Part shown: piece after piece, positions 21,567 to 26,715 of the stretch
Layout: each line of letters begins with the position of its first letter
Position numbering within the stretch: the stretch's first letter is position 1
NCBI GenBank assembly: GCA_963675745.2
Contig: CAXXWX010000001.1
Coordinates: 224,001 to 288,000, forward strand
DNA length: 64,000 bases
Direction: 5' to 3'
DNA from: Phycisphaerae bacterium
GTDB lineage: Bacteria; Planctomycetota; Phycisphaerae; UBA1845; Fen-1342
Made by a program: the position numbers and the translations under genes
Notes under the pieces: model-generated
What the model saw: the letters and a program-made list of their open reading frames with translations, nothing else
Told to the model about the DNA's origin: nothing
The model's database searches: none

Positions 21567-24422
21567 TCAGCCGCCCAGCAGTTGCACGAACGGGTCGATG
21601 TCGGCGTTGTTGACGCTTTCGTCACCATTGCAGTCCGCGGCCATGATGTTGCAGTCGGGATAGCTGGTGCCATACGTGCCCGGCTGAGTGATGGCGAGCA
21701 CGAACGCGTCGATATCGGCGTTGTTGATGAAACCGTCGCAATTGCAATCGCCGGTGAGCGTCTCTTCGCACTCATCGGGAATGCCGTTGTCGTTGAAATC
21801 GGTCGAGTTGGCCGGCATCAACTGAAGCGACAGCGTCGTGCCTACCGGTGATCCACCAACCACGGCGCCGCCGACATTGTATGACCACAGCACGGCCGAG
21901 CTGCCATCCTCCTGATATCCGACTGTCGCGGAGTAGCCGTCATCGTAGAGCGCGTTGTCAAAATCAGTGTCCAGGTAGAGGAACTGGGCATAGACGTTGG
22001 CGGTCGGTGTTTCGAAGATTTGAACCTGGAAGGTCACTTCGTCACCATCGAGAACCGTGTCTCCCAGATGGTGCGGGCGGTCTTTCCACTCAATGATGAA
22101 AGCCCGTTGCGGCGGATCTCCGACGACGTCCCAGTAGACGTTGCCGGTATCGGCGTCGAGGTCGTCCCAATACGGCAACAAGGCCTGCGCCCCGCCGAAC
22201 GCCAGCCCGCTGGGCAACGGGAAATTGTAGTTGTTGAGATTCAGCGTGCCGCCAAACCCAATCCCGCCGTTGTTGTGTACCTGCGCTGAACTGCTCGCAA
22301 ACACGTTGTTCGTGAAGGGCATGCTGACGCTAGCGCCACTGTCGTCACCGAGGCTGAGCGGCGTGCCGCTGGCGGAGATTTCAACCCAGCCGAGCACCGG
22401 GGCGACGGCGTCCAGTAGCTCCGGCGGGCGCAAGGCGATGTCGCACTCGTCCGGGATGCCGTTCGTGTTGCAGTCCTGGCTGAAGCCGCCACTGATGTCG
22501 TCGGCGTCGGGCAGGCTGTTGCCATTGCAGTCCGTCAATGGGTCGCAAACGTCTCCGATGCCGTCATCATCGCCGTCTTCCTGGTCGGGGTTGTAGTCGA
22601 GGATGCAGTTATCCGCGCCGTCGAGGATCGTATCGTCGTCGGAGTCGTCATCTAGCGGATCACTGTTGTACGTGTTGACTTCGTCGCCGTCGGTAAGGCC
22701 GTCGTCATCCGAGTCTTCGTCGAGCGGCTTGGTGCCGTGCTGCTGCTCCTCGAGATTGGTCAGGCCGTCGGGTTCCTCATCGACGTCGCCGTCGTGGCCG
22801 AGGTCGCCGAACCAGGTCGTTTCCCAATCGTCGTCCAACCCGTCGGCATCAGTATCACCCTCGATCGGCCCCGGCAGAGCCATGGTGTAGTACGCGTCGG
22901 TTGTATTTCCCATCCAGTACTCGAGATTGAATTCGGAAACCTCGATGAAGCGGTACCAGATAGTGCCGTAATGCTCGACGCGAACGATCAGCACGCCGTT
23001 GGCTTGTCCATAGGTGTGAACGATGTCTCCGCCGGGGTTGAAGGGGTTGCGACCGAAATCAACGTAGCCGTTGGCGTCGGCCGTGTAATAGGCATCGACG
23101 GTGTTGTCGAAGAGCTTGCCGTACCAGCCGGACGCGGGCTCGGCGCGATAGACGCGGACGTCGGCGCCGGTGCGCGGCCTGCCAAACGCATCCTCGAAAC
23201 GATAGTGGTTGTTGTCCGGCAGATCCTGAAGATACACGCCGATGTTGGCCGGCGCATTCTGGTTGCCGCCGTAGTTTGTTCCGCCATATCCGCAACAGGC
23301 ACGGTCGTAGGCGATCAACTGGAGCGCGCCGGCTTCGTACGGTGACCAGACGTATCCCCACGGTCCGCTCATCACGCCGCCGCTGCTGTTGTAGCGCAGC
23401 ACCTCGTCGAACGCGATGTATGGCATGTAGGCGCTGCCGCCGACGTAGGTAGCACCTTCCCAGATCTGGACCGAATCAAAGCCGCCGTGATCGGCCGTGT
23501 TGTGTACGTCAAAGCCGTACGAGTCGATCAGGTAACGCGCGTGCCCCAACTCGTGCAGCAGCGACTTCTCGAAGTAGAAGGGGTTGTCATCGCTTACGTT
23601 GCTGACGTCGGCGTAGAAAGTGCTCGGCGGGAGCAGGTCGGTGTTGAACCCCCACATCAGGTCCACTTCCTTGTTGTAGCGATCCGGGTTGTTGCTCGGA
23701 TAGCCGCCGGCCAGCGGCAACGCGTCATCGGGGACCACGACAATCTGGTCGATGCGCACGCGCGTGCCAACACCGCCCGGCGTAACATCCCAGACGGCAT
23801 CCTCGTACATGTCGTTCTGGCGGCTCATGTGGCGTTGAATCCAGTCTTCCCAGGAGTTCGAGCCGACGCCGAGACGCCACTGGTTCTCGTGGAAGTACCG
23901 CCACACCGATTCCTCGACCCAGAATCCGGCCAGGATCGCGTCGGTATAGTCCACGATCGAGTTGTTGCTCTCGCTCAATTCCGGAATCGCGTTTGCGGGA
24001 TCGACAATGAACTCGACCGTGTGCGGGCCGGCCTGCCAGATCCAGTCCAGCGTGACGATCCTGAGCCCCGTCGGCGGATCGTTCGGATCGTAAGGGTCAA
24101 AGTCATAGTCGAATGGCGGGGTAAGCGGCTCAAAGTTGGTGATCGTGCCGGTATCGGCGACGGCACCGTCGATCACCCAGGCGTAGGCGACGCTCGGCAG
24201 CGCGCCGGCGCCGGACTCGTCCCAGAGACGCACGTGCCCGTGGAATGTGACCAGGTTGCCGGTCTGTGGCATGTTGGGCACATCGTCGTAGTCGTAACGC
24301 GGCGTTCGCTCGATGAGCGTGACATTCAAATCGGTGTTGGGCCCGGCATACGCCGGCAGAGCGACAAACGTCACGGCAACGACGGCGCAACACGTGTGAA
24401 ACGCGATCCTGATACGGTTCAT
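21567..24422 (-). CDS. large secreted protein: CARDB-like domain, HEXXH metallopeptidase-like domain, Ca-binding TSP3-like repeats, C-terminal dockerin-like domain
   Basis: Signal peptide; VDPANAIPELSESNN; LLHELGH; DSDDDGLTDGDE/DNC repeats; GDCNCDGFINNADIDAF..ADCNGDESVNNADIDPF. Confidence 0.8.
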   Translation of the reverse strand: MNRIRIAFHTCCAVVAVTFVALPAYAGPNTDLNVTLIERTPRYDYDDVPNMPQTGNLVTFHGHVRLWDESGAGALPSVAYAWVIDGAVADTGTITNFEPLTPPFDYDFDPYDPNDPPTGLRIVTLDWIWQAGPHTVEFIVDPANAIPELSESNNSIVDYTDAILAGFWVEESVWRYFHENQWRLGVGSNSWEDWIQRHMSRQNDMYEDAVWDVTPGGVGTRVRIDQIVVVPDDALPLAGGYPSNNPDRYNKEVDLMWGFNTDLLPPSTFYADVSNVSDDNPFYFEKSLLHELGHARYLIDSYGFDVHNTADHGGFDSVQIWEGATYVGGSAYMPYIAFDEVLRYNSSGGVMSGPWGYVWSPYEAGALQLIAYDRACCGYGGTNYGGNQNAPANIGVYLQDLPDNNHYRFEDAFGRPRTGADVRVYRAEPASGWYGKLFDNTVDAYYTADANGYVDFGRNPFNPGGDIVHTYGQANGVLIVRVEHYGTIWYRFIEVSEFNLEYWMGNTTDAYYTMALPGPIEGDTDADGLDDDWETTWFGDLGHDGDVDEEPDGLTNLEEQQHGTKPLDEDSDDDGLTDGDEVNTYNSDPLDDDSDDDTILDGADNCILDYNPDQEDGDDDGIGDVCDPLTDCNGNSLPDADDISGGFSQDCNTNGIPDECDIALRPPELLDAVAPVLGWVEISASGTPLSLGDDSGASVSMPFTNNVFASSSAQVHNNGGIGFGGTLNLNNYNFPLPSGLAFGGAQALLPYWDDLDADTGNVYWDVVGDPPQRAFIIEWKDRPHHLGDTVLDGDEVTFQVQIFETPTANVYAQFLYLDTDFDNALYDDGYSATVGYQEDGSSAVLWSYNVGGAVVGGSPVGTTLSLQLMPANSTDFNDNGIPDECEETLTGDCNCDGFINNADIDAFVLAITQPGTYGTSYPDCNIMAADCNGDESVNNADIDPFVQLLGG

Positions 24423-24605
24423 TGCAATACCCTCGCAATCCCATCCGCTGGATTCCATTGATCCAGTATAGCCAACCCCGGTCCCCAGCGGGCGCAACCA
24501 ACCAGGAATTCTTGCATGTCGGCACCGCCGAGCGCCCCCGCGCCTGACGATCGCCCGAGCCCACGTCGCCAACCCGCACCGGAGAATCGGCACCTCCTGC
24601 CGGCC

Positions 24606-24685
24606 CGCAGGTTGGTAGGGCGCTTTGATGCACCGATTCCATCCGCAGAGCACGAATGGTGCGGCGAGCCACACTACACCTGCAC
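24606..24685 (+). repeat. ~80-bp direct repeat, copy 1 (REP-doublet-like)
   Basis: Closely similar to 26479-26557, including the spacer (GCACCGATT.CATCC...GAATGGTGCGGCGAGCCACAC). Confidence 0.8.
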
Positions 24686-24836
24686 CCGCCTCGAATCCAC
24701 CGTTTACGCCACGCACCCGGGTTCCACCTCCTCCCTCTCGAGGGAATCTCTTGTGTCATGCGGCGTCGGGCGCGATAATTAGATACCTGAAGGATCTACC
24801 TGATCTGGACGCGGCACTTCTGAAGGAGGGACACAC

Positions 24837-26051
24837 ATGCTTCCACGACACATCACCGTTGCCTTAACGCTGGTTCTAATCGTCGGTAGCCAGGCACAGG
24901 CCCAGGATCGTTATCCGCGGCGATGCGACCTGAACTGCGATGGTCTGCTCAACAACGGCGACATCGATGCATTCGCGCTGGCCATCACGTACCCGGGGCA
25001 GTACCTGTATGACTACCCCGACTGCGACATTAGCTTGGCCGACACAAACTGCGATGGCGCGGTCAACAACGGTGACATCGACGGCTTTGTGGCGGGACTG
25101 GGCGGCGGAAGCATTCCGGCGTGTCCAGGGGACATGGTGCTCGTCCCCGCCGGCGAGTTCGAGATGGGCGACAGCTTCGGCGAGGGATACTCCTATGAAC
25201 TCCCCGTCCACGACGTGTATCTCGACGCGTACTACATCGACACGTACGAGGTCACGAACGAGCAATACGCCGACGCGCTCAACTGGGCCTGGGACCAGGG
25301 TGGGCTGATTCATGTCAGCGGCGGCGTGGTGCTCAAGTACGGCGGCACAACCTATGGTTATTGTGATACCACGACCAGCTCGTCACACAGCCGCATCGAG
25401 TGGGACGGCGACATCTTCACGGTCACCCCAGGCAAGGAAGACCACCCGATGGCCAACGTAAGTTGGTACGGCGCGGTGGCCTTCAGCAACTGGCGCAGTG
25501 GCATGGAAGGGCGCACGGCGTGTTACGATCTGGCGACGTGGACGTGCAACTTCGACGCCGACGGCTACCGGTTGCCGACGGAGGCCGAGTGGGAGAAGGC
25601 AGCCGGCTGGGATCCGGTCCTGGAGCGGCATTTCCGCTTCGGCGAGCACACCGACGGCTGCGGATATAATTGCCTGGACGGCCATCGGGCCAACTACTGG
25701 GAGAGCGGACATCCGTACGAGAACGGTGCTTACCCGTGGACGACGCCGGTAGGCTACTACGACGGCCGCAACCATGGTGGGTACCAGACCGAGGATGCGC
25801 AGAGCTACTATGGCTGCCGCGACATGAGCGGTAACGTATGGGAGTGGTGCCACGACTGGTACGACTCAGGGTACTACAGCTCCAGCCCGTACCATAACCC
25901 GACGGGGCCCGCCTCGGGAACATACCGTGTTTTGCGCGGCGGCAGCTGGAACAGCAATCCGAGCCCCTGCCGCGCGGCGTATCGCGGCAGGGTCGACCCA
26001 CACCCCCGCCTCAACAACTACGGGTTTCGTTGCGTGCCGGGGACTCAGTAA
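24837..26051 (+). CDS. secreted dockerin-like + FGE-sulfatase (C-type-lectin fold) protein; putative DGR target
   Basis: AAGGAGG RBS, signal peptide, two dockerin-like repeats, MVLVPAGEFEMG, YEVTNEQY, RLPTEAEWEKAA, DMSGNVWEW, RVLRGGSW...GFRC. Confidence 0.9.
   Translation: MLPRHITVALTLVLIVGSQAQAQDRYPRRCDLNCDGLLNNGDIDAFALAITYPGQYLYDYPDCDISLADTNCDGAVNNGDIDGFVAGLGGGSIPACPGDMVLVPAGEFEMGDSFGEGYSYELPVHDVYLDAYYIDTYEVTNEQYADALNWAWDQGGLIHVSGGVVLKYGGTTYGYCDTTTSSSHSRIEWDGDIFTVTPGKEDHPMANVSWYGAVAFSNWRSGMEGRTACYDLATWTCNFDADGYRLPTEAEWEKAAGWDPVLERHFRFGEHTDGCGYNCLDGHRANYWESGHPYENGAYPWTTPVGYYDGRNHGGYQTEDAQSYYGCRDMSGNVWEWCHDWYDSGYYSSSPYHNPTGPASGTYRVLRGGSWNSNPSPCRAAYRGRVDPHPRLNNYGFRCVPGTQ
25926..26051 (+). other. 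putative DGR variable repeat (VR) and IMH region
   Basis: RVLRGGSWNSNPSPCRAAYRGRVDPHPRLNNYGFRC; the presumed variable codons are all NNC/NNT, as expected from AAC/AAT templates; hairpin and avd start follow. Confidence 0.65.
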
Positions 26052-26087
26052 CTGCTTGTGGCTTTACTGCTTTCTTTTTTCAATCTA

Positions 26088-26115
26088 GCGCGGCCCGAGG
26101 CCCGAAGGGCCGCGC
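26088..26115. promoter_or_regulatory. GC-rich hairpin with GAA loop downstream of the VR (DGR-type homing element)
   Basis: GCGCGGCCC...GGGCCGCGC inverted repeat with an inner GGCCC-GAA-GGGCC, 37 nt after the stop codon. Confidence 0.6.
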
Positions 26116-26126
26116 AGCGCGCGAGA

Positions 26127-26198
26127 ATGGCCAACGACGAGTTGCTGGTTATCGAGCGGACGTATCAACTGCTGAAGTGGTTTCTGGAAAGACTGGGT
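26127..26198 (+). pseudogene. avd: 5' fragment of DGR accessory protein Avd
   Basis: MANDELLVIERTYQLLKWFLERLG resembles the Avd first helix; similarity stops before the usual FP..R..LG motif and the frame runs into repeats. Confidence 0.65.
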
Positions 26199-26238
26199 TT
26201 GTCACAGCATCGCGGGGTCAAGTCTGCTGGCCATCTCC

Positions 26239-26432
26239 GCCCCGGAGGGGCAGCGGTCAGTAGCCGGGGGCGCCAGCCCCCGGTTAGCGCACCAACACGA
26301 TCGAGCCCCGGCGGGGCGCCGGTTGTGGGCGCCATAAGGCGGTTACCGTCGCCCCGCCGGGGCTCGATCACACATCGGCACACTGGCCGGGGGCTGCGCC
26401 CCCGGCTACTAACCAGCGCCCCTACCGGGGCT
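26239..26432. repeat. composite palindromic REP/MITE-like element
   Basis: GCCCCGGAGGGGC, AGCCGGGGGCGCCAGCCCCCGG and GAGCCCCGGCGGGGCG, followed by their inverted counterparts. Confidence 0.75.
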
Positions 26433-26478
26433 CATCCGTCTGGTGGCCTCGAATGGCGCTCGCTCCAACGCCAATGCA

Positions 26479-26557
26479 CGCAGATTGGTAGGCGTACGTC
26501 TTGACGCACCGATTTCATCCATTGAGCGCGAATGGTGCGGCGAGCCACACCCTGCAC
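26479..26557 (+). repeat. ~80-bp direct repeat, copy 2
   Basis: Matches 24606-24685. Confidence 0.8.
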
Positions 26558-26715
26558 GTACCGAACTTCGCCTCGTCTGCCCGGCGCCAGGCCCTGCTCG
26601 TGGACGGCTCCGCGGCGCCCCGCCCTTGACATGCACGCCTGTCGCCGTAACTCTACGAATCTGCGCTGCCCCTGGGAATGCGGCAGGCATACGTCGGCAT
26701 ATTGAGGCTTGGCTA

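Follow-up and report, generated by a model that had tools for sequence, protein, structure and literature searches.

We found that a 64,000-nt window of a Phycisphaerae genome assembly (G000, contig C1, positions 224001-288000) carries the left end of a diversity-generating retroelement (DGR), and that the variable repeat (VR) at the tip of the likely secreted binder it encodes has in all probability (about 85%) become frozen. The evidence comprises a VR signature at the 3' end of the target gene, a stub of the accessory gene avd, the gene order of intact DGRs in relatives, the absence of the template repeat (TR) and of a DGR reverse transcriptase (RT) from the assembly, a duplication in the target hairpin, and the mosaic composition of the target gene. 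Coordinates below are those of the window, and features lie on its forward strand, apart from the unstranded hairpin and palindromic doublet and one gene on the reverse strand.

In the 404-aa protein encoded by the target gene (24837-26051), a likely signal peptide is followed by a dockerin-like repeat pair and then by an FGE-type CLec domain that ends in the VR. The likely Sec signal peptide (aa 1-22, 24837-24902) was assigned by eye. The dockerin-like part (aa 30-90, 24924-25106) is a duplicated DxNxDG repeat pair that also appears as direct repeat D2, and the FGE-sulfatase/CLec domain (aa 99-400, 25131-26036) was assigned with Pfam and with a Foldseek match to the Treponema protein TvpA (2y3c, E 1e-17). 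A preliminary description of this DNA, made from the sequence alone, had proposed a gene of the FGE-sulfatase fold with a DGR-like C-terminal sequence; the open reading frame and a strong Pfam match (FGE-sulfatase, PF03781, E 1.9e-53) agree with it. Its term "dockerin-bearing" holds by homology, with Dockerin_1 matches in 15 of 82 aligned homologs (out of 120 listed, mainly proteins ending in a CLec domain), but not for the protein itself, which had no Dockerin_1 (PF00404) match in Pfam at E values up to 1. The DxNxDG motif has 122 matches in the genome, where the module is common, and Cohesin gave one weak partial match there, to a protein on C13 (25.3 bits, cut-off 24.1).

The AlphaFold model of the target protein has a mean pLDDT of 91. 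Its top structural matches were true FGEs, and the Treponema variable protein 2y3c was also among them. When the protein was aligned to a Streptomyces FGE, the second active-site cysteine (CxxxxC) aligned and the first was absent. The two FGE cysteines are the active-site residues of FGE catalysis. Because only one of the two aligns here, catalysis is unlikely, and the protein would be a CLec-type binder rather than an enzyme.

We then compared domain identities among 11 proteins. The same-genome paralog P0102 was 59% identical to the target in the signal part, 72% in the dockerin-like part, and 53% in the CLec domain. The foreign protein P0003 was 88% identical in the CLec domain and 25% in the dockerin region, and its N-terminus was unrelated. 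By these identities the target gene is a mosaic, with an N-terminus nearest to its own paralog P0102 and a CLec domain nearest to P0003. The named relatives of Avd and of the target were Phycisphaerae and other Planctomycetota MAGs. The whole genome contains 16 FGE-sulfatase matches. Two close CLec paralogs in it (G000:C12:42044-42961 and G000:C15:111025-112206) have neither hairpin nor avd, and the C12 paralog carries an internal, more decayed VR-like segment with 10 of 13 codons of the form NNY. Divergently oriented from the target gene, a large secreted-type protein is encoded on the reverse strand (21567-24422), with weak CARDB and TSP3 matches and a C-terminal dockerin-like pair.

The VR core, delimited by comparison with TRs, spans 105 nt (25925-26029) and includes 13 variable codons (aa 372-374, 376, 377, 382, 384, 386, 390, and 392-395), defined as those where most related templates read AAC or AAT. 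Compared with the TR of a relative (G082), the VR differs at 16 of 31 adenine sites versus 7 of 74 non-A sites (Fisher p 6.7e-6), and the adenine bias was seen against all 10 relatives' TRs tried (p 7e-6 to 0.017). The third codon position is a sharper test, as variable protein positions would give some adenine bias in any homolog. The third bases of all 13 variable codons, both T's included, were those of the G082 template (binomial p 1.6e-4 against the 51% C at third positions of the upstream CLec domain; p 1.9e-3 with C and T pooled). The NNC/NNT pattern noted earlier at these sites thus exceeds what GC bias gives. Across the 82 aligned proteins, the 13 variable columns averaged 3.6 bits versus 1.2 upstream (p 7.5e-10), and residues that NNC/T cannot encode (E, Q, K, M, W) made up 57 of 1049 in the variable columns versus 343 of 2248 in equally variable upstream columns. 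Five VR positions were explained by none of six TRs and may reflect drift or an unsampled template. Taken on these comparisons, the 3' end of the gene is a true DGR-written VR.

The gene is followed by a pyrimidine-rich spacer (26052-26087), found at the same place in intact cassettes, and by a DGR target hairpin (26088-26115). The hairpin contains a 7-nt tandem duplication (copies at 26092-26098 and 26099-26105). The commonest hairpin of the clade has an 8-bp GC stem and a GAA loop of 3 nt. In the window, the minimum-energy fold has a 9-bp stem and a 10-nt loop; the centroid fold differs from it and retains the GAA loop on an inner stem of 5 bp. The GC hairpin described earlier is present at the conserved place, but its GAA loop gives way to a 10-nt loop in the best fold because of the duplication. 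As folding energy alone was not significant (z -1.4 in the window; z -1.2 in the intact locus of G088), the evidence for the hairpin is its conservation across loci. In phage BPP-1, a loop longer by 2 nt, or the loss of loop-adjacent stem pairs, is reported to cut homing to near background (PMC3240598). That rule was established for a phage DGR whose loop has 4 nt; by analogy, the increase from 3 to 10 nt should block homing here.

Downstream of the hairpin lies a 5' stub of avd of 24 codons (26127-26198), whose frame continues into unrelated sequence up to 26504. Codons 3-24 of the stub are identical to the Avd of G088 at 18 of 22 positions (82%, tblastn E 4.7e-6), in line with the earlier description of an Avd-like start that loses similarity after about 24 codons. 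The G088 Avd passes the NF033474 model (97 bits, cut-off 80), and the stub was its sole tblastn match in the genome below E 0.4. The HMM search of 26127-26198 suggested in that description returned no Pfam or NCBIfam match for the 24-aa stub alone; comparison with a close Avd was the one approach that worked.

We searched the assembly (5.2 Mb, 28 contigs, 91% complete, 6% contaminated) for the remaining parts of the cassette. No TR was found by blastn, by an adenine-wildcard ungapped scan of both strands, or with relatives' TRs and spacer as queries. The next best candidate in the wildcard scan had 27 non-A mismatches, and a BLASTN comparison of the VR with the genome, proposed earlier as a way to find a TR differing at adenines, returned none. 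The TR 3' spacer was likewise not found in the 5.2 Mb. No match in the genome exceeded the NF033474 cut-off for a full Avd, and three weak matches (20-30 bits) lay away from any target. A DGR RT was not found in the 91% complete assembly; the four RT matches all belong to one group II intron protein, present in three identical copies and one truncated one, with 28% identity to the G088 RT. The proposal that the RT and TR part was lost thus agrees with the assembly. Remote DGR targets have been defined by Wu et al. 2018 (PMC5758913), and no same-genome TR matching the VR at all non-A sites was present in the assembly. A degenerate pattern for the cognate TR gave 0 matches in metagenomes, and the best TR found, from relatives, leaves 7 non-A mismatches to the VR. 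Dating by distance to foreign TRs proved uninformative, as 7 falls within the 3-14 seen for intact loci against foreign TRs. Separately, the 5'-truncated intron RT (G000:C16:195046-195900; full copies on C7 and C26) adjoins a serine recombinase-type element and lies beside hydrogenase maturation-like genes (neighbour labels by eye).

One public run contains the stretch. One of its contigs, possibly from the source sample, spans 25571-26669 at a depth of 4.1 with 0 differences and 0 gaps, and supports both the junction and the hairpin duplication. No variant was seen in the run contigs, a form of data that at a depth of about 4 cannot show population variation.

We searched 279 genomes of the order with a related Avd fragment; 34 matched, several with complete DGRs. 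Intact relatives have the order target, spacer, hairpin, avd, RT, TR, and 3' stem-loop, and the layout avd-TR-RT assumed in the preliminary description is wrong for this clade. Loci from the Avd sub-clade to which the window belongs were sorted manually into broken and intact, leaving aside same-contig duplicates, L131 (whose contig ends in the RT), three loci with more distant Avds (L133, L135, and L149), and the sister sub-clade. Among 30 loci, 20 were broken (the window included, and one with no target upstream) and 10 were intact (one with frameshifts). The breaks fell at about codons 23, 24, 31, 33, 35, 36-38 (two), 38-41 (five), 53 (two), 72, 78, 85 (two), and 103 of avd, and one fell 13 codons into the RT; certain pairs of loci have a common origin, and mis-joined MAGs could make the count too high. 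Thus 19 of 20 broken loci break within avd, the RT being three times longer. A functional stub of fixed length was rejected, given that the breaks span codons 23 to 103 and one lies in the RT. The five loci broken at codons 38-41 (L122, L136, L137, L138, and L116) differ in hairpin type, and this cluster possibly marks either a hot spot or common ancestry. In G260 and the two G147 copies, an internal deletion has fused avd with the 3' stem-loop, and the spacer alone remains after the targets in G008 and G001.

A search with the G088 RT gave matches in 23 of the 279 genomes. Among the 13 genomes that have broken loci, a number that includes G163 of the sister sub-clade, 12 yielded no match to a DGR RT; some genomes were scored on only 7 candidates. 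The sole exception was G031, where a TR on another contig matches the VR of the broken locus at all non-A sites; its RT is incomplete, with a match that begins only at residue 51 and is interrupted by a stop. Broken loci that keep a local TR showed non-A mismatches to it (7 plus a 3-nt gap in G024, 10 in G163, and 4 in L137), and 6 of 8 scored intact loci had 0 such mismatches to their own TR (19 in L066 and 4 in L090). Because 12 of 13 genomes gave no RT match and VR and TR have drifted apart, avd stubs of this kind mostly mark dead cassettes, not remote targets.

Several loci of other genomes had further features. L066 (G093:C62), with its 19 mismatches, looks intact, and its genome has two more DGR RT matches. 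L120 (G200:C17) has an almost unmutated TR-like repeat in the VR position before a hairpin and truncated avd, with no full target upstream. In L028 (G027:C22), the VR of a CLec gene is succeeded by a PEP-CTERM-like tail, and the gene is followed by a hairpin and by a nearly full Avd of another clade that runs into an ilvC-like frame, and G027 gave no DGR RT match. A GxxExxY gene (TIGR04256) with short flanking repeats of the CGCAGAT type was present in nine DGR loci: L122 (G024), L117 (G159), L110 (G200:C1), L136, L137, L126 (G008:C305), L081 (G163), L082 (G102), and L085 (G244). Its position was the avd break, the stretch behind the spacer, or the interval from avd to RT, and L081 held only part of it. 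In three of the loci (G024, L137, and G163) it stands in place of almost the entire RT, of which the last codons survive along with the TR. GxxExxY may be a mobile element by which DGRs have been disabled repeatedly; we found no such link in the part of the literature consulted. As the cause at the window locus it was ruled out, being absent from both the locus and the genome.

We also analyzed the surroundings of the break. A large REP-like palindromic doublet of 190 nt (26240-26429) starts 41 nt past the break, and one similar element lies on C4. With six Y1 transposase matches in the genome, a REP-type origin of the doublet is plausible. The locus is flanked by a REP-like element in two copies of a 75-nt direct repeat with 81% identity (24603-24674 on the left and 26476-26550 on the right). 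The 75-nt form occurs only around this gene, but the genome contains 12 copies of its 17-nt core, which weakens the idea of a transposon-like unit. An empty site was sought in the same-genus genomes G001-G003; the downstream gene was present, the upstream neighbours differed, and no clean empty site was seen. A contig of run X1 with 80% likeness skips the locus, leading from 24570 to 26620 with unknown letters at the join, and in this run the summed depth of the flanks is about double that of the inner parts outside repeats. As a weak hint, the join is possibly an empty site in a co-occurring relative. A promoter scan found none, and two terminator-like matches were at chance level.

The preliminary description had left open whether the locus is a frozen variant or a remote target diversified in trans. 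Freezing is now much better supported, by the lack of a TR and DGR RT in the assembly, the altered loop, and the 12 of 13 broken-locus genomes with no DGR RT match. We regard it as improbable that an RT, Avd, and TR encoded elsewhere in unassembled DNA still diversify the VR in trans. Remote targets are known from 45 of 372 DGRs according to PMC5758913, trans diversification is documented in PMC10907252, the stub locus of G031 does have a cognate TR on another contig, and about 9% of the genome is unassembled, in which a DGR could lie given 91% completeness and 28 contigs. The third positions of the variable codons are also undecayed; these clean positions (13/13) and the unbroken stub fit a recent loss and, equally, current activity. 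Against this reading, no TR, DGR RT, full Avd, or TR 3' spacer occurs in 5.2 Mb, the hairpin loop is widened, those 12 genomes gave no DGR RT match (some genomes being scored on only 7 candidates), and the G031 RT match, beginning at residue 51, contains a stop.

Somewhat less probable still is a mixed population, in which the assembled allele is broken and other cells keep an intact cassette and continue to diversify. A precedent is reported at DGR 3 and DGR 7 of Thiohalocapsa PB-PSB1 (PMC10907252), and run X1 holds three further contigs that can be aligned to the avd stub but are not identical to it. However, those contigs differ at several positions and may come from other organisms, and the sole listed contig identical to the locus reads through the break. 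We consider it very unlikely that the break at 26198 is a mis-join beside the palindrome: despite the closeness of the palindrome, a separately assembled contig, possibly from the same sample, covers 25571-26669 with no difference or gap, and similar stubs occur in many other genomes. An ordinary FGE-like protein with NNC codons from high GC would fit the 51% C at third positions of upstream codons and the true FGEs among the best structural matches, but this reading is already largely refuted by the adenine-biased match to real TRs and the codon pattern, sits badly with the conserved spacer and hairpin, the Avd start placed as in intact cassettes, and the missing first FGE cysteine, and has hardly any probability left.

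Under the favored reading of a frozen relic, the CLec end of a DGR would have recombined onto a native secreted module. At the intact stage, RT and Avd would have copied TR RNA with errors at adenines, overwriting the VR. A deletion starting at avd codon 24-25 would then have removed most of avd, the RT, and the TR; the palindromic repeats that now lie at the break may have promoted it. The hairpin duplication would also spoil recognition by a DGR acting in trans. The protein is predicted to be now a CLec binder of fixed specificity, likely anchored outside the cell via the dockerin-like module.

We also considered whether the amputation was a selected lock-in, in which a CLec/VR end grafted onto a native secreted module is diversified and the winner is then fixed by cutting inside avd and damaging the hairpin. 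This idea is speculative and we think it rather doubtful. The concentration of breaks in avd (19 of 20), the intact targets, the two separate locks in the window, and the GxxExxY module in nine loci point toward it. The excess of avd breaks is equally explained if dead DNA is worn away step by step up to the end of the gene that is kept. If lock-in were true, Phycisphaerae would use DGRs in a hit-and-run manner, building a library of frozen binders, and it would address how a useful DGR variant escapes overwriting.

Among known proteins, FGE/SUMF1 shares the Pfam family PF03781 with the window protein, in which one of the two active-site cysteines aligns. TvpA of Treponema denticola (2y3c), which we take to be an FGE-type CLec DGR target, has the same fold and a C-terminal variable region (phmmer E 6e-16; Foldseek TM 0.72 by target; 24% identity). 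TvpA is presumably a lipoprotein, encoded in a genome whose DGR is intact, whereas the window protein has a dockerin-like module and no DGR. The BPP-1 system, as described by Guo et al. 2011 (PMC3240598), resembles the window in having a GC-rich hairpin just 3' of the VR, followed by avd; its loop is a GRNA of 4 nt and its genes run avd-TR-brt, compared with a 3-nt GAA loop and avd-RT-TR in this clade. Like the window, Thiohalocapsa PB-PSB1 (Dore et al. 2024, PMC10907252) is described as having CLec targets beside degraded machinery; MITE-like repeats have caused damage there, and recombination has joined CLec/VR ends to various N-terminal domains. Its cognate TR and RT are often located elsewhere and diversification was measured according to the same report, whereas none was found for the window, and the likely signal peptide and dockerin-like module at the N-terminus of the window protein are unlike its targets.

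Decay of this kind is already in print, and the window locus is an ordinary decayed DGR. Wu et al. (PMC5758913) report that they set aside more than half of their candidate DGRs because these were broken or incomplete, and RT-anchored surveys miss targets with no adjacent RT, as stated by Roux et al. (PMC8144416). Many Phycisphaerae proteins annotated as "formylglycine-generating enzyme" are likely frozen DGR products missed by such surveys. A literature search that covered few subscription journals found no paper on DGRs in Phycisphaerae. The new details are the 7-nt hairpin duplication that widens the loop and the frequency of amputation in this clade of Phycisphaerae, where 20 of 30 classed loci are broken, at varied points. 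The closest known systems are the intact Phycisphaerae/Planctomycetota DGRs (G088, which is L067/L121, G082, L129, and L130), which share the VR backbone, pyrimidine spacer, GC hairpin, and avd start with the window. Unlike the window, DGRs of the G088 type keep the full avd, RT, TR, and 3' stem-loop, together with the 8-bp/GAA hairpin or a clade alternative. The locus is thus one point in a clade series that runs from intact cassettes, through avd stubs of many lengths, to a bare spacer.
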